This document shows positions 25,787 to 43,268 of a stretch of 64,000 bases of DNA, piece by piece (the first letter of the stretch is position 1; each line of letters opens with the position of its first letter). Origin of the DNA: Candidatus Latescibacterota bacterium (GTDB taxonomy: Bacteria > Latescibacterota > UBA2968 > UBA8231); the NCBI GenBank assembly GCA_964291625.2, contig OZ220089.1, positions 480,001 through 544,000 of the forward strand, read 5' to 3'. The notes below the pieces were generated by a model. The model saw only the letters and a program-made list of their open reading frames with translations, was not told the DNA's origin and did not search any database. Position numbers and translations under genes: made by a program.

Positions 25787-25895
25787 ACCGCCGCTACTGT
25801 GCGAGCATTCCGACCCCCTCGCCCACGATGTCTGGTACTCACCCGGAAGCCGCCGCGTTGGCCCGCCCTTCCATCACGGCGCATCGCTCCATTCT

Positions 25896-26492: not shown

Positions 26493-26534
26493 GGTTCTGT
26501 TTCTCCCCTTGGGTCAGCAGGGCCGGCGCCGGCC

Positions 26535-27252: not shown

Positions 27253-27260
27253 CGGTCCCT

Positions 27261-28835
27261 CTACCCGGTGTGCTTGCGTGTGCCGCCCGGTGCGAGCCGT
27301 TCCTCGCGCCACGGGCTCTCCTCGCCGTCGCCGCGGGTCCGCCAGGAGAAGGCGAGAGGCTGCCCTCCCCCGTTGTGGAACACGACCTCCGCCGCGGCCG
27401 CCGCCCCGGGAAGGGGACGCACCAGTGAGAGCAGGGTCGGAGGCGGGTGGCTCCTGCCATCCTCCAGCCGGAACTCGAGCAGCGGCCTGACCTCTCCCCG
27501 GATCTCCCGCGTGCCCAGCAGCAGCGGGCCGTAGCATGCGGTGACCGCTCCCTGCCCCCAGTTGCGGCCGTGTCCCGCGGCCACCGAGCAGACCGCGCCT
27601 CCCATGTCGGCGTGTTCCCGACCGCCGCGCAACACGCGCCTCGCCATCTGCAGCCGGGTCCCGGCGTTCCGCAGGGCGCGAAGGGCGTACCCGACCTCCC
27701 CCGTCACCTGCCAGGCGAGGGTCAGGGTGGCCGTGGACGGCTCGCGGACCGGCCTCACCGATCCGTCCTCCGACCACTCGCCCCAGTACGCCATGTCCGC
27801 CCGCTTGCCCACACCCGGCGCCCGCATCCGCCGCTGTTGGGGAAAGACCAGGGCCAGCTGCTCGGGCGACTCTTCGGGCAGGGCTTCCAGCCCCGAACGG
27901 ATCTCCGGATCGAGGCCGGTGTCCGCGAAGGTCCAGCGGTACCAGCTCAGCGCCGCCGCCGCGGGATCGTTGTAGGGATCGTCGAGGCAGTCCACCAGGG
28001 GCTCCACGATCCGCCTCGCCGCCTCCCGGAAGACTTCGTCGCCGGACAGCAGCCACAGATCTCCCAGGGCGTAGACCGCGCCCGAGGCCAGCAGGTTCTC
28101 GATGCCGGCGAGCGGGTCCCCGGGAAGGTGGTGGCCGCTGGCCGCAAGGCGGTGCAGGCCCCGGGCCTCGACCTCGGCTTCGTCGAGCCCCTCGCCGTCG
28201 AGGGTCCAGAGGAGGGGCATCGGATCCGGCGCGAAGACCAGGCGCTCCGCCCGCTTGCGGCCATGGCCCAGGGCCCACTCCAGGTAGCGCTCCTCCCCTG
28301 TCACCCGGTGAGCGGCGAGGGCGATGTGGAGAAAGCGGAAGTGCTCGGCCAGCTCATAGGCGTCCGACTCGCCGTTGGTCACGCAACGGGTGCCGATGCG
28401 GTAGCCGATGAAGGTGTCCCGCGAGTAGTCGTACCACGGAGGGACCTCGGGCACCCAGTTGCCGATGTGCTCGGCGGCGTCCGCCAGCAGCGCGACGGCT
28501 TCGGCATCCTGGGCCCGCAGACCGATGTAGCGCGGCAGGAAGAGCAGGAAGGGTTCCGGCCCGTGATGGGCCTCGGCCTCGGGCTCGTACCCGTGGAAGC
28601 ACTCGCGCTCCACCCATCCCTTCAGCGCCGACTTCAGAGTCTCGAAGTGGCGCAGGACCTCCGAGTCGCCGGTGATCAGATAGTGGGGGAACCACGCCAG
28701 GGCGTAGTTGGCCTCGTCCTCGCCGCCGTCGTTGGGACCGGGCGGATCGAGGCGCCGGCTCTGCTGCAGCCAGCGGTCCATCTCGGTCCGCAGCTCGGTG
28801 TAGGCGGTGTAGCAGTTGTGGATCTGGTCCTTCAT
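27261..28835 (-). CDS. Hypothetical protein, possibly an (alpha/alpha) barrel carbohydrate-active enzyme
   Basis: 524-aa ORF with CAGGAG RBS; repeated '(W/H)xxTG(D/E)xxY/F' helical-hairpin signatures. Confidence 0.6.
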   Translation of the reverse strand: MKDQIHNCYTAYTELRTEMDRWLQQSRRLDPPGPNDGGEDEANYALAWFPHYLITGDSEVLRHFETLKSALKGWVERECFHGYEPEAEAHHGPEPFLLFLPRYIGLRAQDAEAVALLADAAEHIGNWVPEVPPWYDYSRDTFIGYRIGTRCVTNGESDAYELAEHFRFLHIALAAHRVTGEERYLEWALGHGRKRAERLVFAPDPMPLLWTLDGEGLDEAEVEARGLHRLAASGHHLPGDPLAGIENLLASGAVYALGDLWLLSGDEVFREAARRIVEPLVDCLDDPYNDPAAAALSWYRWTFADTGLDPEIRSGLEALPEESPEQLALVFPQQRRMRAPGVGKRADMAYWGEWSEDGSVRPVREPSTATLTLAWQVTGEVGYALRALRNAGTRLQMARRVLRGGREHADMGGAVCSVAAGHGRNWGQGAVTACYGPLLLGTREIRGEVRPLLEFRLEDGRSHPPPTLLSLVRPLPGAAAAAEVVFHNGGGQPLAFSWRTRGDGEESPWREERLAPGGTRKHTG

Positions 28836-29719
28836 CCTGGCAGGGCTCCTGTATTGCAGATGAACCGGTGCTCGACTGACAGCAAAGGAGAGAATTAGGG
28901 TCGCCCTTCCCGACCGATGTCAAGGCCTCGGAAGGTTCCCTCCGGGGGCTGAAAGAGCGGGCACTCTTTCCAGCCGGTCTGCTCTCGCGCCGTCCGCGAA
29001 CCCCGGTCGAGTCCGGATCTTTCACCCAGACACCTGAAAGGTGCCGATGGGTGGTCCCCAGCGGCCAGTCCGGGTTCTCCGACAACAGCGTGGGTTGGCA
29101 CAGCCGTCTGGGGCGCGATCCTGGGACACCAGGGCCAGAACCCTCGGCCCTACCCCCCGGCAAGTCCTCCAGCCCGGACGGTCTCTTTAGTTCCGGCCGC
29201 ATGGGTAGCTCTGGGCCGCCTAGCGGGTCCGTTGTACGAATCGTCCCTGTCCCCTTCCTGTCCCTTTCCCTGAGCGTCCACCCCCCTCCCGACTTTCCTA
29301 TTCCGAAGTCACCCTCTGGAGCGGGGTCTCTCCAGCGTCAGGACCACACCCAGGTTTGCACACCCGCATCTTGGGGACACTATATTGCCGGCCGGAATCG
29401 CATTGGCTACACCCGGGAAGGAAGAGTAGAATTGACGGTCACACTGGGATTGCTTCTCCTTCGGCATCTCTGCGACCGCTGACGCTCCCGGTCGAGACCC
29501 CCTATGGCAGTGTCGGGGCGCTGGAGTTGGAGAGCCCCGCACAAAGAGCAGAAGGGCGAGAGAAGCACCTCACGGCCCTGATGGCAGTGCTTCGCCGATC
29601 CCAAGGTGCGTCTCGGGCACGGGTCCGAGAGAAGGCTGGTAGCCCGGCGGCTCAGCAGCATGGGATGGAATAGGGTATCTGAAGGGAACAGTACCTGAAC
29701 CTATCGGAAGCATCGTATC

Positions 29720-30160
29720 ATGAAACGATGTGCGAAAGGGGTGCGGACCTGCTCGGGGATTCCGGGCTTGGTTCTCGTGAGCTTGGCTTGCAGTGGATGC
29801 ACTGTAGATGCCGTCTGCAACAACCCCAACCTCCTCTGGCTCTGGCTGATCCTGCCGGTATTGCTCGGCGCATTGGGTGGAGTCGTAATGTGCCTAGTCC
29901 GGCTTCATCAACTCAAGGGATGGGATCTGAGCACTTCCCCTCGGACACCGAGACCGAAGTCTCTTCTGATTGGTGCGTCTATTGTCGCCGCCATCCTTTT
30001 CCTCTCCTTCCCCTCCTTCATGATCCCTGCCGAAGCCTGTGAGCCAGATCAGAAGACCGCCAACATCACCTTCTGGCTGCTGGGAAGCCTGATAGGCACG
30101 ATGATCGCCCTGGTCGGGCTGCTGCTCGCCAATCAACGCTACTCGAAGGGATCGGAGTGA
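29720..30160 (+). CDS. Small membrane protein (possible lipoprotein-type signal plus about 3 TM helices), first gene of the island operon
   Basis: Hydrophobic segments; stop overlaps the GTG of the next gene (GTGA). Confidence 0.7.
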   Translation: MKRCAKGVRTCSGIPGLVLVSLACSGCTVDAVCNNPNLLWLWLILPVLLGALGGVVMCLVRLHQLKGWDLSTSPRTPRPKSLLIGASIVAAILFLSFPSFMIPAEACEPDQKTANITFWLLGSLIGTMIALVGLLLANQRYSKGSE

Positions 30161-33100
30161 TTGTGAACTCCCTGATCGCATGCGGTGGGACCGGAGCGCA
30201 CGCAGTCTTGGCGATGATGCGACTGCATACGCTCGGATACGCCCTCGGGTTCTTTCGCCAACCGAACGACAAGCCGCTGGACTTTCCAGCCCTCTATCTC
30301 GTCGACCAAGATGCCGGTGATGGGCCCGGGGAGGAAACCGCGTGGCAAATGGTCCGCCGGCTTGTCGAATATCATCCTGGCCACTGGAACTCGCACGAGA
30401 CGTTCGGGCGGGAGGACGGTCTCAACCCAAGGATCGTGACCCCGTTGCCGGTTGGCCCCGACGCGGAGTGGTTCAACCCCCCCAATGACACGTTAGGCAA
30501 GCGTTTTGCCCATTCACCTCACCTGGATTTGCTCACGGACAGGGACCAACGGGGAATCCAGTTCTCGCGAGGCATGATGGGATCACCTTCTGTCGGGGCC
30601 CTGCTCTTTAAGCTGAAGAACCACGATGCTGGGGCAAGCGGCATCAACCATGACGGGGCTTTTGAGACGCTTCGAAACGAACGAGGGCGCATCGCCGTCG
30701 TCGGCTCTGGAGTAGGCGGGACCGGCGCCGCCGTAGTGCCCACGCTCGCGCGTCAACTCGCGGACGATGGCGCTCGCGTCATGGCCGTGATGGTGCTGCA
30801 ATGGTTCAAGTTTACAACCGACGGGATTGATGAGCTTCTGCGTGAGAAGGCAGAACTCAGGAACGATGCTATGCGCCAGAACGCGCACTCCGCCCTCGCC
30901 TACTGCGGTCAGGACCTAGCGAGAGAAGTAGCAACGGTGCCTGTAGGAGTACCGGAAACAGCCATCGTTGCTCGACGATTTACATCGGACACTGAACAGC
31001 CGGCGCATGAGTCGTTCGTCCACGGTGTCGCCGCCCTCTCCTGCCTGCGCCACTTTCTCGCATCGGAACCGTACCAGGCGGGCCTCTACCAGATGGGGGC
31101 CGAAGACCCTAGGAAACTCGGCGGTGGCAACCTCATCCCAGGCGGTAGTTCTGATGGCACCCTGCAGGATCTCGCGAATCAGGCCGGGACGCTTGCCACC
31201 ACCCTGGATGCCTTCGCGGCCGTGCTGGCTGATTCTCACTCCGGACGGTTCGCAGTCGTCCCCGCCATCTATCGCGAGATTCAACGCCTTACCGACCCGC
31301 GACAGGTTAGTCGAGAGATTCGCTCCCTCACAGCCAGCTACCGGGAACACCTGGGGTGGCTGCAACAGGTCCTTGGCGTTGAGCCGCAACCGATAGGCGC
31401 CTTGGCCTTGGAAACCAAGTCACGCAGGCGCTTGATTGACCACCCGATCCCAGAAACCACCGACCCATCACCGCAGGAGGTGGCTCTGAGCATTTTCCAC
31501 TGGGTTGCGGAATGGATCCGTAATCCTCAAGAAAGGAGGTCCGCTGGACTCCTCCCCAGCAAGCCGGGGAGGGTCGATGGCGGGTACTGGCCGCCCCTTA
31601 GTGGTGACGGTCTTGCCGTTGCGGCGGATCGCGCCGGTGACTTGAGCTCGGTTCCTTCCCAGAACGTCGAGGTTACGCTGGATGCAATCGTCGACACCGA
31701 CCACGTGTCGCAGAACGGCTGGCCGCATCCGATGGCCGTCGCCGATCACTTCCGGTACGCGGTTCAGCGTGAAGACCGGACAGCAATGCGCCAACTCGAG
31801 ATGCTTCTGGTGGGTCTGGTCACTGGCAACCTCGAATTGAGGGAAACCTCAGAAGCCGATGAGTCACCTGAACCCGTATCTCTCGCCGCATTGGTCAACG
31901 CGGTTCGTGATTCTGGCTTTCCCGGGGTCGCCAGGTACGCAGTGGTCTGGCCGGTAGAGGACGAGGTTCTGGGCTTCAATTCTCCGCATACGCTCTTGTG
32001 TGCAAAACCTCCATCCGACCAGCATGCTGTCCGAATCTGGGCAAGGCTGTGGGCGCAACTGACGAGATCAGATCAACCGGAGAATTGGGCGACCGTGGAG
32101 TCACCTGCCGCCTGGAGGCACGCGGACCAAGCAATCCACCAGATCCAAACTTGGCTCGCACATCTGAAACAGGTGCATAGCGGCACGCCACCCGCGTGGA
32201 CACGCATCTTCGAGCATCAACCAGGCCCGGCACACGTCCCATATGGCACTGACGAGAGAACATTCCCACTCTATTGGGCCTCCACAAGCGGAACTGTCCC
32301 GGTCGGCCTGCCGAAGGCCAGGGCCGGGGGCTATCAGCCCGGTGAAGACACCCCGCTGATCCCCGAAGACGAACTTCTAGACAGGATTCCACAGCTGCGA
32401 AGACTTCGAAGCCAATCCGGTCACATCCTCTATGAGATGGTGGAGTTCGAGGCGCCGGACCGGGAACGTCAAGTCCGTGGCCTCTGGAAGGAACACCTCG
32501 ATCACCTGCAGCAACACGGCCTAATCGCTGACTTCGGTAACAACGTGGATGACGTGTTCATCCTGATGCCAGACTGGAAGCATGCGGCGCTCAAGAGAAC
32601 GCGTATTCTCGATCGCGACGTCATGATGATTCGGAGATGCAGCCCGATGCGACAGGATCCCGTCCCGGGCTCCTCTACCCGGGTAGGATCCACGCGCTAC
32701 CCGGATCTTCCGCTGCGTTCGGACTATCTCGATCTCGTGCGGACTGACACCCGAAGGACAGTCCTCGATCTCCTGAAAGAGGGCGCCCCGCTCAACCCCG
32801 GGGAGTTCGAACCGGCGATTGACGATACTCATCAGGGAAGGTCCGCTACCTGGACGCTGCGACTGAAGGGCCGCCAAGATCCGCTGACAATCTCGCTTCC
32901 CGTTGGGCCCGAGAATGAGAATCACCAAGCGCATTGGATGGTCTGGCCTCGGTTTCGATCGAGTAGTAGCCAATTCTGGCGTTCCTACTACGTCTATGAG
33001 CGTTGCACGGATGCACGCCTACGGTTGGAGACGCTGTGGTTGGACCCCGAGTCCAATCGCGTGCATCGATCTGATGTACAGGATCGATCCGGACCACATC

Positions 33101-34980
33101 CAGTCCGTTTCGATGCACGGGGAGGCACCCGCGCCCACACCGGCGGACCACCCCTCGCCTTCAGCGTCCGGGACACAGTGTCCGAAGACGAGATCGGCCT
33201 TTACCTGATTCCTCTCACGCCGGTGGCGCCGAACGACAACGATCTACGGATCGGGATCGATTTCGGGACATCACATACCGTCGCATCGCTCCTGACGGGA
33301 GGCGAGCCATCGGTCGTCCAACTCGCTGCCGAACTCGACCCCGCCAACGCGGAGACGGCGTTGACACTTCATGTCAGCGAGGATTGGTCCCACGTGACGG
33401 CATCGTTCGACCAAGATGGACTGTCGGCGTTAGGTGTCTGGCTGCCCAACTACGTGCAGTCGGTGGCCCCGGACGCCAGGGGATTGCTTCCTTCGGAGTT
33501 GCTCTCCCTACTTCCTCTGGCCAGGGTGAACGCCGAGGAAGTGGCCGGGTGGCAGCCCGGGTATGACTGTGTAATCCCCCCTATGGACATGCAGCGCCCT
33601 GACATCGCCGACCACATCCTGGCGGACTTCAAGTGGGATGCCTCGTTTCCCGCATTCCATGGGTGGGAACCTCTGCTGCGCGAAATCTATCTTGGGATGG
33701 TCGTCGAGTTGGTGATGGCTGATGTCGTCTGGCGCCGACGCGCTATACCCTCTCAACCTGTCGACTTCACCTTCACCTACCCCCTCCGCACGCAGCCAAC
33801 CGAGTTGAGTAGCTTCGAAGAGATGCTTCGCCGCCTGCTTGAGAACAGCAGTCGAAGTCTCGGCTGCAAGCTCATCTTGCGCGGCGAAACCGGTACCTAC
33901 AACGAGTCTCGTGCCGCAAAGGGAGGCACTGGCAATTTTGGGGAGGTCAGTCTGGTGGGTGATCTTGGTGGCGGGACGCTCGATCTCTTCATCTCGGCAA
34001 ATCCCCTCCCGGGTGTCAGGTTTCAGGAAGTCGCCGACAGCGCCAAGCTCGGAGGCAACCTGCTCCTGCGGACCTTTGCCCGGAACCCCCAGAGGTTCCT
34101 TCCTGAAAACGCCGGCTGGAGGTTCGATGACCCAGAAGGACTGGAGACCCAGCTCCGCGCTTGGATGCGATCCAAGGGGTCGCGGGACTTGTTCGGCGAA
34201 GGTGCTGGTGACCAGATCGTGTATCGCGGGTTGGACCTTCGGGGCTTCGACCAACCCTCACAGGCGGACCCGGCGCGTCGCCTCATCAGCCGCTACTTCC
34301 AGTTGATCGCCGAATACATGGCCCGCAGCCTTGTCGCGTTTCTGGCACGTGACTGGTACCGGCAAGCTCCGCCGCACCATCATGACAAGCTCAAAATTCT
34401 CGTGCAGCTTCGCGGCAACGGCTGGCGGCTCTGGCATGACGCTGTCGAATACAGACGCATCGAAGAGGAAGTCGGGGGACGGATCGAGAGCCGGGCGCGG
34501 TTCCTGTGGCAGGATCCTGGGCTGTGGAACCTGGCTTCTCCTCCGGGCCTTCCGAACGGAGCCTGGGCGGCTCGAGACACAGGTGACGCGAATCCGAAGA
34601 CCGCGCCGATTCTGGCCGCCGTCGGTCAGGCTGAATCGCGCCAGGATGCCGAGCGCTTCAAATCGCACACGCTGGTCCAGCTCGACTTGCTCCATGCGGG
34701 GTCCAGCCCTGATCCCGTCCCCTGGTTCAGTTCGGACCGGTTCAAGACTGGCGGCAAGACGACCCAGGTTGAGATCAACGCAGTTGAGCCGCCCCTGCCT
34801 CTGAGTCCTCATGATGTTGAAGCATCAATCGACGATTTCGAAGACCAACTCAAAGCCGAGGTCAACCGCAAGCTCCGAGAAGAAGGTTCCTTCCCGAACG
34901 AGGTCGAGTTCCGGGCACCTGTGGCCCCGATTGTCTGGGAAGCGGCGTTCAAGTGCAGGCAGTTCCTGGGCAATGATTGA
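30157..34980 (+). CDS. Giant tubulin/FtsZ-like GTPase - actin/Hsp70-like ATPase fusion protein
   Basis: N-terminal IACGGTG (about 30175), LVDQD, G..GSPSVG, GSGVGGTG (about 30703); C-terminal IGIDFGTSHT (about 33250), GDLGGGTLD (about 33960), LGGN, LRGNG (about 34408); uninterrupted 1607-aa frame. Confidence 0.8.
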   Translation: MIVNSLIACGGTGAHAVLAMMRLHTLGYALGFFRQPNDKPLDFPALYLVDQDAGDGPGEETAWQMVRRLVEYHPGHWNSHETFGREDGLNPRIVTPLPVGPDAEWFNPPNDTLGKRFAHSPHLDLLTDRDQRGIQFSRGMMGSPSVGALLFKLKNHDAGASGINHDGAFETLRNERGRIAVVGSGVGGTGAAVVPTLARQLADDGARVMAVMVLQWFKFTTDGIDELLREKAELRNDAMRQNAHSALAYCGQDLAREVATVPVGVPETAIVARRFTSDTEQPAHESFVHGVAALSCLRHFLASEPYQAGLYQMGAEDPRKLGGGNLIPGGSSDGTLQDLANQAGTLATTLDAFAAVLADSHSGRFAVVPAIYREIQRLTDPRQVSREIRSLTASYREHLGWLQQVLGVEPQPIGALALETKSRRRLIDHPIPETTDPSPQEVALSIFHWVAEWIRNPQERRSAGLLPSKPGRVDGGYWPPLSGDGLAVAADRAGDLSSVPSQNVEVTLDAIVDTDHVSQNGWPHPMAVADHFRYAVQREDRTAMRQLEMLLVGLVTGNLELRETSEADESPEPVSLAALVNAVRDSGFPGVARYAVVWPVEDEVLGFNSPHTLLCAKPPSDQHAVRIWARLWAQLTRSDQPENWATVESPAAWRHADQAIHQIQTWLAHLKQVHSGTPPAWTRIFEHQPGPAHVPYGTDERTFPLYWASTSGTVPVGLPKARAGGYQPGEDTPLIPEDELLDRIPQLRRLRSQSGHILYEMVEFEAPDRERQVRGLWKEHLDHLQQHGLIADFGNNVDDVFILMPDWKHAALKRTRILDRDVMMIRRCSPMRQDPVPGSSTRVGSTRYPDLPLRSDYLDLVRTDTRRTVLDLLKEGAPLNPGEFEPAIDDTHQGRSATWTLRLKGRQDPLTISLPVGPENENHQAHWMVWPRFRSSSSQFWRSYYVYERCTDARLRLETLWLDPESNRVHRSDVQDRSGPHPVRFDARGGTRAHTGGPPLAFSVRDTVSEDEIGLYLIPLTPVAPNDNDLRIGIDFGTSHTVASLLTGGEPSVVQLAAELDPANAETALTLHVSEDWSHVTASFDQDGLSALGVWLPNYVQSVAPDARGLLPSELLSLLPLARVNAEEVAGWQPGYDCVIPPMDMQRPDIADHILADFKWDASFPAFHGWEPLLREIYLGMVVELVMADVVWRRRAIPSQPVDFTFTYPLRTQPTELSSFEEMLRRLLENSSRSLGCKLILRGETGTYNESRAAKGGTGNFGEVSLVGDLGGGTLDLFISANPLPGVRFQEVADSAKLGGNLLLRTFARNPQRFLPENAGWRFDDPEGLETQLRAWMRSKGSRDLFGEGAGDQIVYRGLDLRGFDQPSQADPARRLISRYFQLIAEYMARSLVAFLARDWYRQAPPHHHDKLKILVQLRGNGWRLWHDAVEYRRIEEEVGGRIESRARFLWQDPGLWNLASPPGLPNGAWAARDTGDANPKTAPILAAVGQAESRQDAERFKSHTLVQLDLLHAGSSPDPVPWFSSDRFKTGGKTTQVEINAVEPPLPLSPHDVEASIDDFEDQLKAEVNRKLREEGSFPNEVEFRAPVAPIVWEAAFKCRQFLGND

Positions 34981-35815
34981 CTCCCGACTCTGGGGTGGGT
35001 ATCTCCTGGGCATAGTCACGGTGCTCGCCCTGAACCTCTACGACTCCTTCTCCCCTACATGGCGGATTGCTGCGCTGGCTGTGGCCGCGGTAGCCGGACT
35101 TGGCCTATTGCTCGCCAGTCTCCTTCGCGGCCGCATGCAACGCCCCCGCCGCACCCCCGATGCACCGGAGGCGGCAGTGCCACCACCAGTTGCACCCCAT
35201 CTTCACGACCGGCCGCTGGCGAGCGATTCAATCACTGCCGGCAGCCCCCCCCAAGCCCCCCCGGGTGCTGTCGCTGGTAGCCCAGTGCCGACCGGATCGA
35301 AGCCACCATCATCTCTATCTCCGGCATCTCAGAGCGAGGCAGAGCACGAAGACCAAGATCCCTCGCGCCAACATCCACCACCCGACTCCGCCAGTACTCT
35401 TGAGCCTTCGCCGGCGCCGTCAACCGAACCTGCGAGCGTTCCTCCCAAGCCGGCCACACCCGGTCATAGTGATCTGATCGATGCATGGCATCACTACTGG
35501 CGCGTTGGGGACGGCCACTTCAAGGCGGGAGGCTTGGAGAATCAGCTGACCGCAAGCGGCTTCACGGCCAAGGTCATTGACGGTGCCGAGGTAGGAGCTG
35601 GTGACCACGTGCTGATAGTCGACACCCAGTCCCCAGACAAACACTTCTTCGTACTTCCCAGTTTCGCGAGATCGCCTAGGTCCGTGCAGCACTGGTTTCA
35701 CGATCAGAGCGGAGGTGCCTTGACAGGCACGACGCGCCAAGTGAACAGTTTGGCCGTGGGCCGATGGACCGATTCCGGCGCGTTTGAAGTAGTGAAGAAG
35801 GGAGCCGTTTCCTAG
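34973..35815 (+). CDS. Two-TM membrane protein with Pro-rich linker and C-terminal globular domain
   Basis: MIDSRLWGGYLLGIV... two hydrophobic helices and a long Pro/Ser/Ala tract; overlaps the upstream stop by 8 nt. Confidence 0.72.
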   Translation: MIDSRLWGGYLLGIVTVLALNLYDSFSPTWRIAALAVAAVAGLGLLLASLLRGRMQRPRRTPDAPEAAVPPPVAPHLHDRPLASDSITAGSPPQAPPGAVAGSPVPTGSKPPSSLSPASQSEAEHEDQDPSRQHPPPDSASTLEPSPAPSTEPASVPPKPATPGHSDLIDAWHHYWRVGDGHFKAGGLENQLTASGFTAKVIDGAEVGAGDHVLIVDTQSPDKHFFVLPSFARSPRSVQHWFHDQSGGALTGTTRQVNSLAVGRWTDSGAFEVVKKGAVS

Positions 35816-35851
35816 TGAGATACCAATTGACACAGAGGGGGCACGACACCG

Positions 35852-36070
35852 ATGACCGTCAGTGACACACTTACAAGTCAAGTGGTCGCGACTTGTGTCG
35901 TCCTTGCCTCTCTCGCAGTTGCACTCTCCTTAGTTGTCTTGTCGGTAGTTCGCTGGCTGTGGATCCGTCACCGGCGTATTGCCTCCCTCACGACCGAGGA
36001 TTCGGTCTTACTGCTCCGAGAGGCACTTCGCTTGGCCGAGAGCATTCCGCGACTTACGGGGAAGCAGTAG
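35852..36070 (+). CDS. Small single-TM protein
   Basis: 72 aa with one long hydrophobic helix followed by basic residues; AGAGGGGG upstream. Confidence 0.55.
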   Translation: MTVSDTLTSQVVATCVVLASLAVALSLVVLSVVRWLWIRHRRIASLTTEDSVLLLREALRLAESIPRLTGKQ

Positions 36071-36099
36071 GACACCTGTTCACGAAGGCGTGTGTGACG

Positions 36100-37470
36100 A
36101 TGATGCCAGGCAGATGCGGATGCCTCGAAGCTCTTGTCAGCCGGATTGTCCGGCGGGTGACCGTAGGGGCTGTGGTCCTGACGACGGCCTCCTGCAACGG
36201 CCCCGATGGAGAGCCTCTGAGGCATTTCGAGAGACCTGCCATTGCGATACCGCAGTGGAATGGAGTCCCGGCCCCACCGCCTCCACAGAAGCCCAGGCGG
36301 AAACCTTCAGCGATCGATGTTCACCTCGACATCTCAGCCCCGATGGTCGGCTTCCTGCCACCTGCGTCGAACCCCCAGGGTCCTTCGGTCCTACGTACCG
36401 CCGCGCAGAACGTGGCCAGTCATCTGTCCAGACTGTACGGCGGGGAGAGTGTCTCCATCCGCTGGCGGGCGGTGGGACACGAACTCCGCGATCTGTCAGG
36501 AATGCCCCGATTCGAGAGGTCCCTGTTCGACGGCCGCTGGAGCCGACTGGAACTGTCTATCGAGAGCATTCTCTCCGGCTTCCGCAGCGGACAGATCGAG
36601 GCCGCGGCGTTGGTCACCGACCTGATGGCGACCGGGGACATCACAGGGCCGCTGGCTGTGTCAAACGCTTTGTCTGACTGGCTGGCATCAAGTGACGTCC
36701 GTTCAGCGACCTTCCATGTGGGTCTCCTTGCAACGCGGGCAGATTACCGGGGTTGGCAACCGGAAGGGTGCTCCGAGAGAACCAGTGAGCTTGGGTGTGT
36801 CTACAACGAACGAACTGGGGCAATCACCCCTCTCGACGGAGTCGTGAAGATTCCCTTCTACGTGCTCGTCCTTGCCAGGGACTATGAGAAGGTCAAAGAG
36901 GCGATCGCGTCCGTGCGGCGGGGGATCGAGGAGCTCGAGCAGAGTCTCGAGATCAAGCACGAGATCCTGACAAGGAGATCAAGAGGCTTTGCCGATACAG
37001 TGCACTGCACAGCGAGTAAGCCAGGCGCCAACGGAGAGAGCACACGCCAATACGCCCTGTTTGCAGATAGCAGGGGAAACATGAAGTGCCGCAGAGGCGA
37101 AACGGTGGCTCTTTCCTGCAGTCTTCGGACCGATTGGGGATTGAGCTCGGCCTCTACGGCCTTTGCCGGAAACGGGGAGACGACGGGGCTGTCCCGTGCC
37201 GCTGACGTCCGCGGCCTAGGCCATCGGCTCGATCTGGACATTGACTGTGCGCGACTGCTGGAACTCTCCGAGCCCGTGGAGCTGGATCTAACCGATCTTG
37301 TTGGAGAAGTCACCCCTCGGTGGGAAGTCGACTGGGGTGACTGGTCGACCGAAATCGATGAGCTCGGAAAAACCCTCCAACTCGCAGGCTTCGTGCGAGA
37401 ACTGCGCATCGTTCCGGACAGCTACCGGATCGAGCTTCAGAAGCCCTTTCTCAGCTTTACGGCCCAATGA
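36100..37470 (+). CDS. Lipoprotein with vWA-like (degenerate MIDAS) domain
   Basis: Lipobox LTTAS-C; VHLDISAPMVGF resembles DxSxSM; ALVTDL resembles the vWA 'lvTD' motif; exact start uncertain. Confidence 0.62.
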   Translation: MMPGRCGCLEALVSRIVRRVTVGAVVLTTASCNGPDGEPLRHFERPAIAIPQWNGVPAPPPPQKPRRKPSAIDVHLDISAPMVGFLPPASNPQGPSVLRTAAQNVASHLSRLYGGESVSIRWRAVGHELRDLSGMPRFERSLFDGRWSRLELSIESILSGFRSGQIEAAALVTDLMATGDITGPLAVSNALSDWLASSDVRSATFHVGLLATRADYRGWQPEGCSERTSELGCVYNERTGAITPLDGVVKIPFYVLVLARDYEKVKEAIASVRRGIEELEQSLEIKHEILTRRSRGFADTVHCTASKPGANGESTRQYALFADSRGNMKCRRGETVALSCSLRTDWGLSSASTAFAGNGETTGLSRAADVRGLGHRLDLDIDCARLLELSEPVELDLTDLVGEVTPRWEVDWGDWSTEIDELGKTLQLAGFVRELRIVPDSYRIELQKPFLSFTAQ

Positions 37471-39107
37471 CTTGGATCGTCTACGCCGTTGTCCTAGTCG
37501 TACTTGCCTGCCAGTTTTGGTTGCTCAGGCGTTCCAAGGTCTTGGCGTGGCAGGATGATGCGGCGGCCTTTGATGGCCTACTGACTCGGTTCATCCCCGA
37601 TCTCCTCGACCGAGCGAAGCGCGGCGACGCTCCAGACTGGCTGCGCTACATGGACGATGCCGACAGAGTCTACGAAGGCAAGAGCGAAAAGCTGCGCGTC
37701 TACGCAACCGCGGCCCTCGTGGTCGGTATCGGCGGCACCATGGCCGCTCTCGCCCTCCATCTGTTGTTGACCGACACGAACGCCCAGTCTCTTGGTTCGC
37801 TGCTCGCGGCGATGGGATCGGCCCTGATCGCTAGCGGGTTAGGGGTCGGGAACAACCTGCTGATATCACTCTGGCTGCTTCCGGAGGCGGACAACCGATT
37901 CGCGACCTCGCTACGTCGCTTCAAGGATCAACTCCACGAAGCGAGCTCAGCGCATCCGCCGCAGGAGACGTTCGCCGAGGCAGTGAAGAGCCAGCTCGCC
38001 AATGCGTTCCGGGAGGCGGTTCAGAAGTTCCCCGAGGCGTTCGAACGACTGGATCAGCACGTTGCATCGCTTGCCTCACAGATCGAGCGTCAGGCCACCA
38101 CCGTTTTGTCCGCGGCCACCCAACTCCGGGAGAGTGCTGAAGGGCTGGCAGGCGCAGCCGCGGGAATCGCCCCGGCGGCAGACCGGCTGACGGTCGCTAC
38201 CGACCAGTTACGCGGCCTGCCGGAAGAGATCCGGACCACCCTCGAATCGAGCCGCGATGCGTGGGAGCAGGAGATTCGGAGCGGCCAGAGCGCCTTTATC
38301 GCTGGCGTTAAGGAAGTGTTGACCGAACATCAGGCGCTCCTCGAGAGCACCAGATCCGTCTTCCATGGCTGGGAAGAGAAGAGGAGAAGCGAAGCGGAGG
38401 AGGCGGAGAGAAGTCGACGGGAGTCCGATCTGCTGATTCGCAACGCCACCGCGGAGGTCGTTTCGACCGTCAACGCCCTGCCATCCACCTTCGCTACCGA
38501 GGTGGAGAGAGTGTCAAACACACTAGGCCGCCAGTTCGGCCTGGAGGCGCGGAACCATGTTCGGGATCTGGTGCAAAGGATCACCGATGAGAATGAGGCC
38601 TTGCGAGCACAGATCGATCGCGTGGCGACGGAGCTGCAGACCCGCTTTCTGAACAGCACCAGCGATGTCGTCTCCAAGACGCTTCAGGAGGTCTACCAGA
38701 ACGTCGAGAGCACACTCCTCACTTCCTTGGATGAGGTGGGTAGAGGACTCAGGGAAGCGTTGACAGAGCTGCCGAACAATGCCACGAGCTTCGCCCAAAG
38801 CCTGGCCGCAGCGGACGAGAGGATCCAGCAGGCGCTCAACGGCATCAAGGAGTCATCCGACCACCTTGCCAAAGTGGCTATGCTCACGGAGGGCCTTGAG
38901 ACCTCACTGACTTCCGCGCTCACAAGGGCAACGGCCGATGCCGTCGGACCGCTTCGCCAAGACGTGCAGGAGTTCGTCAGGGACCTGTCCCGAACACACG
39001 AACAATTGCATCAAACCCACACGCAGATCAATGGCATGGTCCAGAGTCTGATCGAGTTCATTCGCAGCCTCGTCGAACGGCTGGGTAATCGCGCCAATAC
39101 CCCTTGA
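37467..39107 (+). CDS. MotA/TolQ/ExbB (ZorA-like) membrane protein with long coiled-coil tail
   Basis: TM1, a soluble domain, a TM pair AALVVGIGGTMAAL / AMGSALIASGLGV, then about 400 aa of heptad-rich helix; ATGA overlap. Confidence 0.7.
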   Translation: MTWIVYAVVLVVLACQFWLLRRSKVLAWQDDAAAFDGLLTRFIPDLLDRAKRGDAPDWLRYMDDADRVYEGKSEKLRVYATAALVVGIGGTMAALALHLLLTDTNAQSLGSLLAAMGSALIASGLGVGNNLLISLWLLPEADNRFATSLRRFKDQLHEASSAHPPQETFAEAVKSQLANAFREAVQKFPEAFERLDQHVASLASQIERQATTVLSAATQLRESAEGLAGAAAGIAPAADRLTVATDQLRGLPEEIRTTLESSRDAWEQEIRSGQSAFIAGVKEVLTEHQALLESTRSVFHGWEEKRRSEAEEAERSRRESDLLIRNATAEVVSTVNALPSTFATEVERVSNTLGRQFGLEARNHVRDLVQRITDENEALRAQIDRVATELQTRFLNSTSDVVSKTLQEVYQNVESTLLTSLDEVGRGLREALTELPNNATSFAQSLAAADERIQQALNGIKESSDHLAKVAMLTEGLETSLTSALTRATADAVGPLRQDVQEFVRDLSRTHEQLHQTHTQINGMVQSLIEFIRSLVERLGNRANTP

Positions 39108-39775
39108 GACGTGCACGCACCCCCCTGACGGCATGGCCGGCCTTCGCGGATCTCATGACGATTCTCGCGGTTGTCGGGCTCACCGCGGCGGTTCTCATCG
39201 TAACCATGGGTGACGAAGCGTGCGAGAAGCTGAAGGAGGAAATCGCCAAGCTGAGAGAAGAGAACGCACAACTGCAGGTCGAACTCGATGCCCGTGACTT
39301 AGAGATCGCCACGTTACGTGAGGTGAACGCGCAGAGGCAAGATTCGGTCGCCACGCTGAGCGCCAGGATTGACTCTTTGTCTGAGGTAGTTGCTGATCTC
39401 ATCATCGGCGCATCCCCATGTCTAGGCATGGACGGGAGTAACCCCAGGGTGCTACTCCGAATCGTAGTCAACAAGGGCTATCGGCTCGAAGCACGTTGGC
39501 CAAGGGACAGCAACCAGGTTGCGGAGATTCCATCGCTCCAGGATGCGGTTTCGATGGGTCAACTTGATTCCGACGCCTTTGAACAGTTCGCCAGCGCGAT
39601 TTACCACCATGGAGATGCCAAGGGTACCTTTGGTGGATCTTGCAGGTTCTTCGTCGAATTGGACAAGGATACAGATTCCTATCCTCGATTCGCACAGGCA
39701 GTAGGCGTGGTGAACCGCTATTTCCTGCTCGCCAACCCTTCGAAGGTCAACGGGATTCTCGCCGCCGGCAATTGA
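39104..39775 (+). CDS. MotB/ZorB-like membrane protein (conserved Asp TM) with coiled coil and non-OmpA C-terminal domain
   Basis: WPAFADLMTIL matches the MotB W..(F/Y)AD(L/M)M motif; TTGA overlap with the upstream gene. Confidence 0.72.
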   Translation: MRRARTPLTAWPAFADLMTILAVVGLTAAVLIVTMGDEACEKLKEEIAKLREENAQLQVELDARDLEIATLREVNAQRQDSVATLSARIDSLSEVVADLIIGASPCLGMDGSNPRVLLRIVVNKGYRLEARWPRDSNQVAEIPSLQDAVSMGQLDSDAFEQFASAIYHHGDAKGTFGGSCRFFVELDKDTDSYPRFAQAVGVVNRYFLLANPSKVNGILAAGN

Positions 39776-40486
39776 GGATTGTGTTCTTTTCTAACACGCA
39801 GATGACTGGCCTTGCCCTGCTGCTGGCAGGTTCGATTCATGCCGAGACCTGGATGGGTCTTGAAGTCGAGGCGGAGAGTCGATGCTCGGCCTATAATCGC
39901 ACGCGGGACTATCCATACTCGCAATCCCTGGAGTTCGCGATATCGAAACGGATCGGAGGCATCCGGTGCCGGTACACGGGAAAGGTGTACCGCAGCCTTC
40001 GCCAGACCCACATAGAGCACGTGGTCGCGTTGAGTGAAGCCCATGACTCGGGCTTGTGTGCGGCGGATGCAGCAACGAAGCGTAGATTCGCCAACGACCT
40101 GCTGAACCTGACTCTCTCCGCTCCCGGCGTGAACTCCCAGAAGAGTGGGAAGGATGCCGGTGAGTGGATGCCCCAGATCGATCCCCGCGGGTTTGCGGAG
40201 ACGGTCATCCAGGTGAAGCTCAAATATGGATTGAGCATCGACCGGAGGGAGCGGGCAGCCCTCGAGAGAGCCTTGGACGGCCACCGGGTAGCGCCGCCCG
40301 ACTCCGTGGGAGTCCTGGCCGAGTTGCCCGAGGCGGAAGGGAGTCCTCTCGATCTGTGGGACGACAACGGCAACGGGAGAATCACCTGCGCGGAGGCTAA
40401 ACGCCACGGCATTGCCCCGGTGAGGCGGCCATCCGGCGTACGTCTACATGAGGGACGGTGACGGCGACGGGTGGGTCTGCGAGTAG
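39772..40486 (+). CDS. Secreted HNH endonuclease (DUF1524-like) with C-terminal Excalibur Ca-binding domain; frameshift near 40428
   Basis: Signal peptide ending IHA-ETW; HIEHVVALSEAHDSG...FANDLLNL...VNSQKSGKD..EWMP; ITCAEA..HG.APV.. and, in a shifted frame, HPAYVYMRDGDGDGWVCE*. Confidence 0.78.
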
Positions 40487-40499
40487 GGAGTGCCCCGTA

Positions 40500-40675
40500 T
40501 CGCACGGCAGGTGGGCGCTGACGACGACCCGATAGATCAGCAGTAGCACGCCCGTGACCTTGACGAGAGACAGGCCGAGCTTCGGAACCCAAGGAAGGGC
40601 CCGGTCCCGCCCGGCCAGCTGAGCCCCGATGGAAGGGGCCAGTCGCGCACCATCATCCGTGCCTCGATGGTCGGG
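40500..40675 (-). pseudogene. Degenerate copy of the 3' end of the acyltransferase gene at 45318-46985
   Basis: AGCCCCGATGGAAGGGGCCAGTCGCGCACCATCA (about 40622) vs AGCCCCGACGGCAGGGGCCAGTCCCGCACCATCA (about 45439); translates MVRDWPLPSGL...KLGL.LV.VTG.LLL.YR. Confidence 0.8.
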
Positions 40676-40761
40676 TCGAAGAGCTCCTGACCGAATCCGA
40701 CGTATCCCATGCGCGGGCGTCGGGCACCCGCCCCGCCCGATGGCCCTTGGCGCGGACTTTC

Positions 40762-40825
40762 CAACTAAGATTTTAGTTGACATGCACCCGGACGCCGGCT
40801 ATGTTCCCAACTAAATCCTTAGTTG
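40762..40825 (+). promoter_or_regulatory. sigma70 promoter (TTGACA 40777-40782, 17 bp, TATGTT 40800-40805) with two BlaI-type palindromic operators
   Basis: CAACTAA-gatt-TTAGTTG at 40762-40779 and CAACTAA-atcc-TTAGTTG at 40808-40825, directly upstream of the BlaI-family gene. Confidence 0.85.
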
Positions 40826-40840
40826 AAAGGAGCAGCCGGA

Positions 40841-41248
40841 ATGGCTGAGAGAGAGGGACCCGACAAGAGGCTGACCCCGCTCGAGACGCTGATCATGAAC
40901 GTCCTCTGGGACGATTCGCCCGCCGCCGTCCGGCAGGTCCAGCAGCGGCTGGAGTCGGTCAAGCCCATGGCCTACAACACCGTCCTGACCATGATGCGCA
41001 TTCTGCGGGAGAAGGGCTTCCTGGTCTCGGAGCGCGACGGACGGTCCGACCTCTACCGCCCGGTGGTGACCCGCCAGGACATGGCGCGGCGGTCCTTGGG
41101 CGACGTCATGGACTCCTTCTTCTCCGGCTCCGCCGAGGCGCTGGTGAGCCAGCTGCTCGACGGCCAGTCCCTTACAGAGGAGGAGCTGCGGTCGATCCGG
41201 GCCGAGCTGGACCGAGCTCTCCAGCGCAGAAGGGGGAGGCGGCGATGA
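40841..41248 (+). CDS. BlaI/MecI/CopY family transcriptional repressor
   Basis: LTPLETLIMNVLW, AYNTVLTMMRILREKGF, FFSGSAEALVSQLL; AAAGGAG RBS. Confidence 0.92.
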   Translation: MAEREGPDKRLTPLETLIMNVLWDDSPAAVRQVQQRLESVKPMAYNTVLTMMRILREKGFLVSERDGRSDLYRPVVTRQDMARRSLGDVMDSFFSGSAEALVSQLLDGQSLTEEELRSIRAELDRALQRRRGRRR

Positions 41249-43194
41249 GCGCGGCCCTGAACGGCCTGGGCAACCAGCTCCTTGCCTGGCTGGGTCCGCT
41301 AAGCATCGAGTTGGCGGCGCTGGCGCTCCTGGTGCTGGCGGCCGGCCGCCTGATACGGTCGCCGGCCCTGCGCCACCTGTTGTGGCTCGCCGTGCTCGTC
41401 AAGCCCCTCGTCGCTGTCGCGGTCAGTTCGCCCTACACGGTCTTCGCGCCGCTTGCGCCGCTGGCGGAGCCCGGGTGGGACGCCATCCCCCACGGGCGGG
41501 TCGAGCACCTGGCGGCGCTGGCCCCGGCTGGTGCAACCACTGTCTCGAGCAGCGCGACACTGACGCCCGCAGGCTGGGCGGCGCTGCTGTGGCTTGTGGG
41601 CACGACCTTGTTTGCCGGGCGGATCCTGGTCGGCTTCGGCGTCCTCCGGCGCATGAGGCGGCAGGCGACGGTGCAACGGGAGGGTCCGCTCTTCGAGGCC
41701 CTGCGGCAGGCCCGTGCGGCTCTCGACTGCCATCCCCGCGTCGAGGTGGCCACCTCCTCCTCCATCCGCTCGCCCATGGTCGTCGGCATCCTGAGACCCC
41801 TCATCCTCGTTCCCACCGACCTGGTCGACCGATTGCGGGCGGACGCGCTCTCCCTTGTCCTCATGCACGAGCTGGCCCACGTGCGCCGATGCGACAACCT
41901 CGCGCTGCTGCTCCAGAGACTGGTCTCGGCAGCTCTGTTCTTCCATCCCGCAGTGTGGCTGTGCGCCCGCATGCTGCGGCGCGAGTCCGAGCAGGCATGC
42001 GACGATCTCGTGGTATGCGCCACCGGCCGCGCGGAAGCCTACGCGCGGGGCCTCACCCTGGTCGCCGAAGCTGCGGCCCACTCGAACCTTCCAGCGAGGA
42101 GAATCCCCATGATGAGCACCTTTGCCTCCACCGAGTCCGATCTCTCGCAGAGGATCCGCCGGACGCTGAAGGGTCAGGCAAGCCGGATGGGTGTTTGGGC
42201 GCGGGCGCTGGCGGTGGGACTGGTCTGCCCCCTGGCCGCCGTGACGATGCCCTCTTACGGGGCTGCCGACAACGGCGCGGGTGGCGAAACGGCAGCCGTC
42301 CGCCTGGAGGCTGACTCAACGCTCGCCGAGGGACTGCCGGAAGAGGCGACCGCCACCGACGGGGACGAAGTCCTGACGATCGAGGAACTCGCCGAGAGAA
42401 TCCACCGCATCGTTGCGGTGGGGGACAGCGGGGAAGTAACGCTGACGTTCTCGGCCGACGACGCAAGGGAGTTCGGCATCTTGAAGCTAGGGGAGGTATC
42501 GGTGGCGGTCTCGGAGGAGGAGATCGACACCGAGGGAGTGCGAAACCGCATCGTTGCGGTGGCGGACAGTCAGGGAGTGACAAGGCGGGGGGCGGTGCGT
42601 AGGCGTGAATTGATCCATGAAGCAATCGCTCGGGCGATGGAGGTAGAAGAGATCGAGAGGGAAGCAATCGAGAGGGTAACGGCCGAAACCGACGGGCTGT
42701 CTGCGGAGGAGACGCTCCACCGGATCCTCGAGGCTGTTCTCCAGAGCCACATCCTGCAGCGGGCGGTGGCGACCGATCCGGACGAATGGTCCGATGAGTT
42801 GAAGACCCGGCTACTGGCGCTCGAGCCCAACAGCACAGTCGAGGAGATCGCCGTGGCTGTCCGCAACGCTCGCGATGGATCGGTGGTGTATGGGTACTCC
42901 GTCGGCGGCGAGGAAGGCCATGAACGCGAGAATCTCTTCCTCGTGGTGGATCAGGACGGCAACATGGAGCTGATGAAGGACAAGCCCGTGACTCTCGCGA
43001 CCCTTGGAGAAGAGCTGAAGAAGCAGCGCAGCCTGATGGACAGCACCTCCATGATCATCATCCAGGTCGACAAGGGCGTCTCCCGATCCCGGATCGTCAA
43101 GATCATGGACATCGCGCAGCAGGTGGGGCTCGTCGATCAGATCATCGCCGAGAGGGACAGCACCGCCGACCAGACCATCGCCATTGAGCCGTAG
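41245..43194 (+). CDS. BlaR1-like M56 metallopeptidase sensor with C-terminal ExbD/TolR-like domain
   Basis: RHLLWL, SPMVVGILRPLILVP, HELAHVRRCD, FFHPAVW, EQACDD; C-terminal LVVDQDG...IIIQVDKGVSRSRIVKIMDIAQQVGL. Confidence 0.87.
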   Translation: MSAALNGLGNQLLAWLGPLSIELAALALLVLAAGRLIRSPALRHLLWLAVLVKPLVAVAVSSPYTVFAPLAPLAEPGWDAIPHGRVEHLAALAPAGATTVSSSATLTPAGWAALLWLVGTTLFAGRILVGFGVLRRMRRQATVQREGPLFEALRQARAALDCHPRVEVATSSSIRSPMVVGILRPLILVPTDLVDRLRADALSLVLMHELAHVRRCDNLALLLQRLVSAALFFHPAVWLCARMLRRESEQACDDLVVCATGRAEAYARGLTLVAEAAAHSNLPARRIPMMSTFASTESDLSQRIRRTLKGQASRMGVWARALAVGLVCPLAAVTMPSYGAADNGAGGETAAVRLEADSTLAEGLPEEATATDGDEVLTIEELAERIHRIVAVGDSGEVTLTFSADDAREFGILKLGEVSVAVSEEEIDTEGVRNRIVAVADSQGVTRRGAVRRRELIHEAIARAMEVEEIEREAIERVTAETDGLSAEETLHRILEAVLQSHILQRAVATDPDEWSDELKTRLLALEPNSTVEEIAVAVRNARDGSVVYGYSVGGEEGHERENLFLVVDQDGNMELMKDKPVTLATLGEELKKQRSLMDSTSMIIIQVDKGVSRSRIVKIMDIAQQVGLVDQIIAERDSTADQTIAIEP

Positions 43195-43268
43195 CGAACG
43201 ATTGGCGGCGGGAGCATTCCAGGTGGAGTTGGGCTGGACTCAATCCACGAAGGCCGACGAGGAACCCC

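Follow-up and report, generated by a model that had tools for sequence, protein, structure and literature searches.

The locus described here lies in a 64,000-nucleotide (nt) stretch of the genome of a Candidatus Latescibacterota bacterium (GCA_964291625.2, contig OZ220089.1, positions 480,001 to 544,000), which as a whole is called the window and from whose first letter all coordinates are counted. Eight open reading frames (ORFs), g1 to g8, all on the + strand, span 29720–40461 (Table 1). The first seven (29720–39775) form a conserved cassette centered on the giant soluble protein g2, in which a tubulin-like and an Hsp70-like region are predicted to be fused, and on a pair resembling the MotA/MotB stator, g6 and g7; g8 lies outside the cassette. 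The initial annotation had described co-directional genes with overlapping stop and start codons in an island more AT-rich than its flanks, and both observations hold. The stop codon of g1 overlaps the start of g2 in a GTGA at 30157, g3 begins with an ATG at 34973, 8 nt ahead of the end of g2 (stop 34978–34980), and the g5/g6, g6/g7 and g7/g8 junctions are ATGA at 37467, TTGA at 39104 and TTGA at 39772, respectively; there is no overlap between g3 and g4 or between g4 and g5. The guanine-plus-cytosine (GC) content of 1-kb intervals is 0.56–0.64 across 29000–40999 (61% for the island overall), against 0.67–0.75 at 20000–28999 and 0.71 at 41000–41999. The hydrophobic segments, four in g1, one in g4, three in g6, one in g7 and, in g3, one scored and another judged by eye, agree with the topologies first described, and g2 has none. 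The Walker A pattern is absent from g1–g8. All seven ORFs of the cassette are intact, and the window copy keeps the invariant residues of the families. No PADLOC, Pfam or NCBIfam model spans the locus from g1 to g8, and the window proteins g1–g5, g2 among them, have no match in any of the three collections.

A scan of one genome per species gave a set of 52 loci in metagenome-assembled genomes, labelled Vicinamibacteria, Thermoanaerobaculia, Bryobacterales, Longimicrobiales/Gemmatimonadota, Rhodothermales/Bacteroidota and Latescibacterota, that is, from the phyla Acidobacteriota, Gemmatimonadota, Bacteroidota and Latescibacterota. Family hidden Markov models (HMMs) detect g5 in 44, g6 in 40 and g7 in 38 of these loci, and the order g2<g5<g6<g7 on one strand is found in 37 of the 52, so that the genes co-occur in a fixed order in four phyla. 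Among the incomplete loci, 11 are truncated by contig ends and one (L053) is merely a distant match. By tblastn, relatives of g1 are present at 30 loci, directly 5' of g2 in each, and relatives of g3 at 27; the poorly conserved g4 has a relative at a single locus (L004). In a cluster of 11 loci of Rhodothermales type, the place of g1 is taken by a divergent ORF of ~155 amino acids (aa), which lies upstream on the same strand in 10 of the 11, at a median distance of 24 nt. When 1476 flanking ORFs were clustered, nothing beyond g1–g7 was common across lineages.

Table 1. Genes and predicted domains of the locus, in window coordinates
Feature	Position	Strand	Description
g1	29720–30160	+	146 aa, membrane protein, about four hydrophobic segments
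g2	30157–34980	+	1607 aa, soluble giant protein, three regions
g2 N-domain	30157–31176	+	residues 1–340, predicted FtsZ/tubulin superfamily, nearest Tubulin_2 (FtsZl1)
g2 middle region	31192–32820	+	residues 346–888, no recognised fold
g2 C-half	32833–34977	+	predicted Hsp70-like ASKHA ATPase region, about residues 1000–1607
g3	34973–35815	+	280 aa, two N-terminal membrane helices, Pro-rich linker, C-terminal domain
g4	35852–36070	+	72 aa, single-pass membrane protein
g5	36094 (GTG) or 36100 (ATG) to 37470	+	lipoprotein of about 458 aa
g6	37467–39107	+	546 aa, MotA/ExbB/TolQ-like domain and helical tail
g7	39104–39775	+	223 aa, MotB-like
g8	39772–40461	+	229 aa, GmrSD_C/DUF1524 HNH; +1 frame runs to 40486

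At least 222 full-length relatives of g2, of ~1600 aa, exist, all of them without a Pfam domain and named “hypothetical” at most. The folds given here for the g2 domains, g5, g3 and the C-terminal domain of g7 are predictions based on sequence comparison. The N-domain of g2 has the invariant residues C9-G10-G11-x-G13, G139-x-M141..P144..G147 and G183-S184..G187-G188-T189-G190, and the order of these putative nucleotide loops matches T1, a T3-like loop and the GGGTG(S/T)G signature loop. PF00091 gives weak matches on the G-G-T-G loop in 27 of 38 relatives (best 1.3e-4), the window protein itself being sub-threshold (E 0.18), and Tubulin_2 matches two of the 38 in the per-member Pfam scan. The more telling link is transitive. 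A profile of residues 1–340 (A8), searched against 1.84 billion representatives, matched 839 proteins at E<=1e-3, 202 at <=1e-10 and 69 at <=1e-30. From the distant matches, 46 were picked (455–550, 1285–1565 and 1660–1970 aa, plus three of 712–825 aa); Tubulin_2 is recognised in 30 of them (best 3.5e-10) and Tubulin in 23 (best 1.5e-8), and the profile matches underlying this link have E-values of 1e-29 to 1e-13. Because of this chain, from A8 to Tubulin_2 and Tubulin, residues 1–340 are assigned to the FtsZ/tubulin superfamily, with Tubulin_2/FtsZl1 as the predicted nearest branch. In hhalign comparisons, for which the references (MotA/ExbB, FtsZ, Tubulin_2 and VWA_2) were small self-made alignments of low power, the N-domain aligned with FtsZ at P 0.024, its last two loops falling on the corresponding FtsZ loops, and with 14 Tubulin_2 domains at P 7.9e-4, compared with P 1.2e-3 for the control, Tubulin_2 against FtsZ. 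PF13809 (Tubulin_2) has no match in the window genome at E<=0.001, and a word-indexed search with the N-domain returned only fragments of the same family. In the ESM Atlas, two homologues of window proteins, P0076 and P0341, led only to unnamed clusters. Two of the 46 distant tubulin-like relatives also bear a TerD domain (best E 2.2e-37; alignment A10).

The C-half of g2 contains two invariant motifs in the family alignment, a phosphate-1 loop, D1035-F-G-T-S-H (1035–1040), and a phosphate-2 loop, D1269-L-G-G-G-T-L-D (1269–1276), followed by a G1420-N-G-W stretch. Compared with solved structures, the C-half profile (A3) has Hsp70s as the best 60 of its 91 matches at E<=10 (E 0.02–0.11). A version diversified by adding genes of the split type described below (A13) has Hsp70, DnaK, BiP or mortalin as the best 60 of 124 matches at E<=1, with a best E of 2.1e-7 and both phosphate loops aligned; the matches of both profiles span the ATPase motifs only. 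Two results count against an Hsp70 assignment: a search of the genome with Pfam HSP70 at E<=10 did not match g2, and a Pfam scan of the C-half in 38 members gave only MreB_Mbl, in one member at E 0.54. The C-half is predicted to be an Hsp70-like ATPase of the ASKHA superfamily. The fusion of tubulin-like and actin-like parts proposed in the initial annotation is thus real and conserved across the g2 family, the term actin-like standing at the level of the superfamily and giving way to Hsp70 for the nearest solved relatives. Between the two NTPase-like parts, the middle region is conserved, with many invariant Trp and Pro residues, and its profiles (A2 and A15) match no solved structure.

The fusion reaches well beyond the close family. 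HMMs of the N-half and the C-half both match long distant relatives of 1285–1969 aa; among the 44 distant relatives scanned, 40 match the C-half HMM and 31 contain both ATPase loops in their strict pattern, and the fusion with both motifs persists in distant relatives of 1450–1970 aa. In four metagenomic loci (L113–L116), the parts of g2 are three adjacent genes, for a tubulin-like protein of ~460 aa, a middle part of ~575–620 aa and an ASKHA part of ~870–940 aa. In L113 (9571–20714), a small membrane protein precedes these three genes, and they are followed by a lipoprotein whose D-x-S-G-S motif is intact, by a 535-aa protein that is truly Hsp70-like, and by another large gene. Since the three parts are adjacent genes in these loci and stay fused in distant relatives, they are probably coupled functionally.

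The pair at the 3' end of the cassette resembles an ion-driven stator in its predicted layout. Residues 1–140 of g6 form a three-helix membrane domain resembling MotA, ExbB and TolQ, followed by a helical tail of ~400 residues; lengths in the family are 404–784 aa, mostly 540–570. PF01618 (MotA_ExbB) matches 6 of 21 g6 relatives (best 2.1e-5), the window protein not being among them. An hhalign comparison with eight MotA/ExbB/TolQ proteins from the same genome gives P 8.7e-4 and a probability of 23%, and pairs the helices with G-I-G-G-T-M and A-L-x-A-S-x-x-G-V with the second and third transmembrane helices, as expected. The tail is rich in Ala, Leu, Glu and Arg, and many coiled-coil models match it, including the tail part of ZorA: the PADLOC ZorA model matches at E 7.6e-9 in the tail only, and NCBIfam antiphage_ZorA_1 reaches 30.9 bits, against a cut-off of 190, at residues 144–270. 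The partner, g7, comprises an N-terminal membrane helix, a coiled coil and a C-terminal domain. Its only membrane helix contains the invariant W11-P12 ... D16-x-M18, and Asp16 is found in 34 of 34 members; the PADLOC ZorB3 model matches residues 9–58 (E 7.7e-4), and MotB_plug does not match. OmpA (PF00691) is recognised at the C-terminus of four of the 34 members (best 6.7e-6; L010, L012, L024 and L049), whereas in the other 30, as in the window, this domain carries two conserved Cys and is not OmpA-like, a domain swap at the anchoring end. The PF01618 and OmpA matches in relatives, the invariant Asp and the helix pairing agree with the initial call of a MotA/MotB-type pair whose A subunit bears a long tail, and g6 and g7 are probably a divergent MotA/ExbB-like and MotB-like pair. 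At four loci of Bacteroidota/Rhodothermales (L017 9045–10378, L032 10902–12459, L034 18521–20237 and L022 22118–23894), two MotB-like genes stand in tandem after the MotA-like gene, which suggests a heteromeric B subunit. Outside the window, contig C2 of the same genome (G000) has, at 130076–131574, a 705-aa frame with a weak MotA_ExbB match (E 0.011) that adjoins the genome's only MotB_plug match (E 0.014, in a 319-aa frame); the two may make up another stator pair with a long tail, perhaps of Zorya type.

The lipoprotein g5 has its lipobox Cys at residue 34 when counted from the start at 36094, and the family alignment shows the invariant residues D79, S81, P83, G86, D176, C226 and C235. A D-x-S-x-P motif and a later hydrophobic strand ending in T-D make up a pair with no more than a resemblance to the metal site of vWA domains. 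The vWA-like label given to g5 earlier is unproven: neither vWA nor any other Pfam family matches any of 34 members, a family search gave 64 proteins, none carrying a Pfam domain, no solved structure was matched, and a search for structure neighbours in the ESM Atlas led to no named family. By hhalign, g5 aligns with VWA_2 at P 0.023 and with the D-x-S-G-S lipoproteins of the split-type loci at a probability of 94% (E 1.5e-7); these lipoproteins in turn match nine VWA_2 domains of the same genome weakly (probability 56% over 22 columns). In g3, the C-terminal domain (35417–35812, ~130 aa) is conserved, and relatives mostly match there. It opens with a predicted EF-hand-like helix-loop-helix around G-D-G-H-F, for which the best 60 of 184 matches of its profile (A12) to solved structures at E<=10 are calmodulin or calbindin (best 2.1e-4, over ~40 residues); the family does not conserve the residues that normally serve as first and last calcium ligand.

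The last gene of the overlapping series, g8, had been counted as a member of the system, with its HNH domain compared to the ZorE effector of type II Zorya. It matches the Pfam family GmrSD_C (PF07510; E 2.9e-8, 34.2 bits against a cut-off of 23, residues 67–127) and has a signal-peptide-like start; its only PADLOC match is HEC-05, at E 0.066. Relatives of g8 are found near 2 of the 52 loci (L033 and L040, both Longimicrobiales), where they lie 5' of g1, one of them on the opposite strand, and L004, the locus closest to that of the window, has none. The gene also appears frameshifted near 40425–40435: frame 0, which begins at 39772, stops at 40459–40461, so that the end at 40486 given initially does not belong to it, and the +1 frame continues to 40486, reading ...HPAYVYMRDGDGDGWVCE up to its stop. 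This Cys-, Asp- and Gly-rich end (D-G-D-G-D-G-x-x-C-E) resembles an Excalibur-type calcium-binding motif. Contigs from two public runs of two studies (X1 and X2) agree with the window letter for letter over 39000–40896, so the frameshift is in the DNA as assembled twice; one of the two runs may be the source sample.

These data bear on the possibility that the locus is a Zorya-type system with g8 as the effector and the giant NTPase in place of ZorC and ZorD. The TTGA overlap of g8 with g7, its GmrSD_C/HNH-type domain and the ZorA match in the g6 tail speak for such an arrangement. The conservation of g8, however, contradicts it, since g8 relatives stand beside only 2 of 52 loci and never within the operon, and with this the type II Zorya analogy fails. 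In addition, a signal-peptide-like start is unsuited to a cytoplasmic anti-phage nuclease, the 3' end is frameshifted, the domain is of the GmrSD_C/DUF1524 kind, the PADLOC models of ZorC, ZorD, ZorE, ZorF and ZorG match none of g1–g8, and the ZorA models match far below the cut-off and in the tail only. Membership in Zorya is not upheld, and we regard a Zorya-type system with an HNH effector as very improbable. Instead, g8 is most simply read from its sequence as an unrelated neighboring nuclease of secreted type.

The distribution of the cassette is patchy. In 40 related genomes g2 was not found (0/40), and the cassette occurs in 11 of the 201 genomes sampled from the order of L019, three of which have two or more copies. 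A Rhodothermales genome (G156, with L022 and L024) contains tandem cassettes with four to five g2 N-domains, one broken by a TGA. Its locus L022 (1–24929) has g2 copies at 103–5184 and 9983–14938, a partial copy of 1114 aa at 15133–18474 and the start of another at 24090–24927, together with two g5/g6/g7 sets, and an additional cassette is found elsewhere in the genome. A g2 tree (FastTree, 38 proteins, 1562 trimmed columns, midpoint root) recovers groups of Rhodothermales, Longimicrobiales, Thermoanaerobaculia and Vicinamibacteria and places the window beside the Latescibacterota locus L004, nested in an acidobacterial group; the GC content of L004, 59%, is near the 61% of the island.

The flanks were surveyed in 125 ORFs from 24 loci, out of 26 picked, considering the 25 commonest families of each scan; L002, L018 and L052 were dropped for a size limit, as was one ORF of more than 1000 aa each from L022 and L047. 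The Pfam families include eight transposase, two kinase, two caspase, two DUF4007 and one AIPR entries, and among the PADLOC models at E<=1e-10 are mad3/mad6 (MADS), SspB, MkoA and PD-T4-6, with two members each. Defence-type genes in this uncontrolled sample of 24 loci are a hint. Viral contigs gave no relative with the two patterns used, and PLSDB plasmids gave no tblastn match. Given the GC deviation, the absence from the 40 related genomes, the 11 occurrences in 201, the tandem copies, the tree placement and the transposases in the flanks, 29720–39775 is a horizontally acquired, self-contained, envelope-spanning cassette of accessory, mobile character. An island so foreign in appearance, next to a frameshifted g8, might also be a decaying cassette or a chance juxtaposition that does not work in this genome. 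Its seven ORFs are intact, however, with coupled starts and stops and their invariant residues kept, and the same order recurs in 37 loci; we consider decay or chance hardly credible.

Several described systems share parts of this composition. In the FtsZl1 operons described by Makarova and Koonin (2010, PMC2875224), for which these authors proposed a role in membrane remodelling, the FtsZl1 protein carries inserts between T1 and T4, and its gene is accompanied by genes for vWA proteins, kinases, OmpA-family proteins and a P-loop GTPase. The likeness to the present cassette lies in a divergent FtsZ/tubulin domain in which inserts separate the first glycine loop from the GGTG signature loop, and in the accompanying membrane proteins, a secreted protein or lipoprotein whose D-x-S motif is like that of a metal site, and OmpA/MotB-family proteins. 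The differences are as clear. FtsZl1 proteins have ~1000–1170 aa, with a coiled coil and an α-helical C-domain, and in our reference set the Tubulin_2 matches lie in frames of 1141–1179 aa in 12 of 14 cases, the other two having 496 and 431 aa; g2 instead has its middle region and an Hsp70-like ATPase. The P-loop GTPase of the FtsZl1 operons has no counterpart in the cassette, which is without Walker A, and a long-tailed MotA-like partner is not described for them in the available text of PMC2875224. An identification of g2 as FtsZl1 proper was rejected on account of its 1607 aa, the middle region with the Hsp70-like C-half and the lack of a PF13809 match.

The conflict systems centered on GTPases, some of which have tubulin, HSP70 and vWA components (PMC7159879, Kaur et al. 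2020), resemble the cassette in that a patchy, variable operon brings together a homologue of tubulin, an ATPase of the HSP70 family and components of vWA or membrane type, and NTP-dependent assemblies acting in conflicts are predicted for the DO-GTPase/GAP1 systems in that paper. These systems are defined by a GTPase of the TRAFAC class with a Walker A motif, the DO-GTPase, together with GAP1, and no Walker A pattern occurs in g1–g8. In the same source, tubulin and HSP70 are separate themes, found mainly in Firmicutes and Actinobacteria, whereas here they are fused or adjacent, in Acidobacteriota, Gemmatimonadota, Bacteroidota and Latescibacterota, and the words MotA and MotB are missing from its main text.

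The ZorAB complex of Zorya is a 5:2 motor whose tail relays a signal to soluble effectors (PMC11946911, PMC11890865). As in Zorya, the MotA-like protein extends into the cytoplasm with a very long helical tail, the MotB-like protein encoded after it has an Asp in the membrane, and the pair is encoded beside large soluble proteins in a patchy operon. The gene order is reversed here, the soluble giant coming first and the stator last, and the C-domain of the window g7, unlike the Zorya pair, has no recognisable peptidoglycan-binding domain. Finally, TolQR-Pal, ExbBD-TonB and AglRQS share with the cassette a MotA/ExbB-family channel, a single-pass partner bearing the essential acidic residue, and periplasmic or lipoprotein partners, and non-flagellar MotAB relatives, gliding motors among them, energise envelope processes (PMC12505986). 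The A subunits of these machines have no tail of 400 residues and no link to tubulin-like or Hsp70-like proteins in this source, and the survey mentions no tubulin, FtsZ or vWA in its available text. The literature searched gave no description of a stator associated with tubulin-like or Hsp70-like proteins, although supplementary tables might list such neighborhoods. The cassette is a distinct variant among the loosely defined tubulin(FtsZl1)-vWA-HSP70 operons, set apart by the fused giant and the ZorAB-like pair.

Our tentative preference, which we hold to be somewhat short of probable, is to see the cassette as an accessory module for conflict or defence (anti-phage or anti-invader) that is akin to the tubulin-HSP70-vWA systems and powered by a Zorya-like stator, which would take the place of the small-GTPase switch found in those systems. 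In such a module, g6 and g7 would form an ion-driven unit of stator type, like MotAB, ExbBD and ZorAB, which the C-domain of g7, whether OmpA-type or two-Cys, would anchor in the periplasm, in the window possibly together with the lipoprotein g5. A disturbance of the envelope, or the ion flow itself, would be relayed through the tail of g6 to g2, which g1 and g3 would tether and which would assemble or be remodelled at the membrane in a nucleotide-dependent manner.

Several findings weigh against a defence module of this kind. No recognised effector (nuclease, protease, NADase, pore or other) through which an invader would be stopped was found in g1–g7 by Pfam, NCBIfam, PADLOC or structure profiles. 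A 5:2 stator, a g6 tail that touches g2 and a g2 that polymerises are all putative. The window g6 and g7 reach no Pfam or curated threshold. Two loci (L007 and L047) have at least 6 kb of downstream sequence in which the family HMMs detect neither g6 nor g7, and the split loci L113–L116, which carry an Hsp70 gene, have no MotA-like or MotB-like gene at E<=1, so that the stator would be an exchangeable module and not the core. For most clades, the branching of the g2 tree agrees with taxonomy at class level, a congruence that fits long residence in the lineages as well as mobility. Most of the other families in the flanks are housekeeping ones, and enrichment in defence islands is not demonstrated because the census had no control set and covered the 25 commonest families only.

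Some of these points favor a housekeeping-type machine for envelope or membrane remodelling (vesicles, constriction independent of division, or envelope repair), as proposed for the FtsZl1 operons, in which the tubulin-like/Hsp70-like g2 would move membrane or give it shape and the MotAB-like unit would give ion-motive energy to the lipoprotein in the manner of TolQR-Pal or ExbBD-TonB. Apart from g2, the whole cassette consists of membrane or periplasmic proteins, an effector domain was not found, the g2 tree is largely congruent with taxonomy, non-flagellar MotAB relatives power envelope processes (PMC12505986), and the FtsZl1 operons with vWA and OmpA-family proteins have been read in the same way (PMC2875224). 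A housekeeping machine is at odds, however, with so rare and patchy an occurrence (0/40; 11/201) in an island of deviating GC, with unconserved flanks that bear transposases and with tandem paralogous cassettes in one genome. Because of this patchiness, the GC island, the flanks and the tandem cassettes, an accessory trait fits better than core cell biology, and we consider remodelling possible, if on the whole unlikely. A different ion-powered envelope machine, for surface motility, adhesion or cargo export, with g5 as the moving or exported part at the surface, comparable to AglRQS or GldLM, is suggested by the MotA/MotB-type pair beside a lipoprotein, the tandem MotB-like genes of some loci and the fact that gliding motors are known non-flagellar relatives of MotAB (PMC12505986). 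Gliding, secretion and pilus families of Pfam and NCBIfam have no match in g1–g7, though, the flanks contain no conserved partner of outer-membrane or secretin type, and a giant cytoplasmic dual NTPase is without counterpart in such machines; this reading appears improbable.

A bolder reading is that the cassette encodes an undescribed ion-powered cytoskeletal machine, in which the Zorya-like stator controls, mechanically or by allostery, the assembly at the membrane of a chain with tubulin/FtsZ and actin/Hsp70 parts. The assembly would wall off or abort a phage infection, or remodel the envelope. We regard it as conceivable and rather doubtful. If it were true, fused and split versions, and those bearing a stator or a separate Hsp70, would be one large superfamily (839 representatives at E<=1e-3). 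If the preferred reading holds, the cassette would connect three hitherto separate subjects, the predicted FtsZl1/Tubulin_2 operons (2010), the predicted tubulin-HSP70-vWA systems (2020) and the solved ZorAB motor (2024–25), and would offer a compact 10-kb operon for studying how a stator controls tubulin-like and Hsp70-like assembly. Tubulin-like and Hsp70-like ATPase modules appear as obligate partners, fused or side by side, in at least several hundred proteins, a partnership that is a lead for research on the prokaryotic cytoskeleton and immunity. For annotation, the gain is a set of domain names for a family of 1600-aa “hypothetical proteins” and the removal of the HNH neighbor from the system.

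As regards the surroundings of the cassette, a leader of ~517 nt without genes and of lower GC content (29203–29719) lies 5' of g1. The sigma-70-like sites in it (29357–29386 and 29403–29432) are weak and at chance level, and promoter-like sites show no excess over shuffled sequence (3 against 2.5). There is no terminator-like site on the + strand after g7 or g8, no Rfam match at E<=0.1 over 28800–41300, no direct repeat flanking the ends of the island and no tRNA gene in the window. On the 3' side of g8, the gene of a BlaI-type repressor (Penicillinase_R, E 2.6e-30) opens the stretch 40823–45310; behind it come two proteins that combine a BlaR1/M56 peptidase with a C-terminal match to ExbD/TolR (E 2.3e-7 and 1.4e-13), an unusual fusion.

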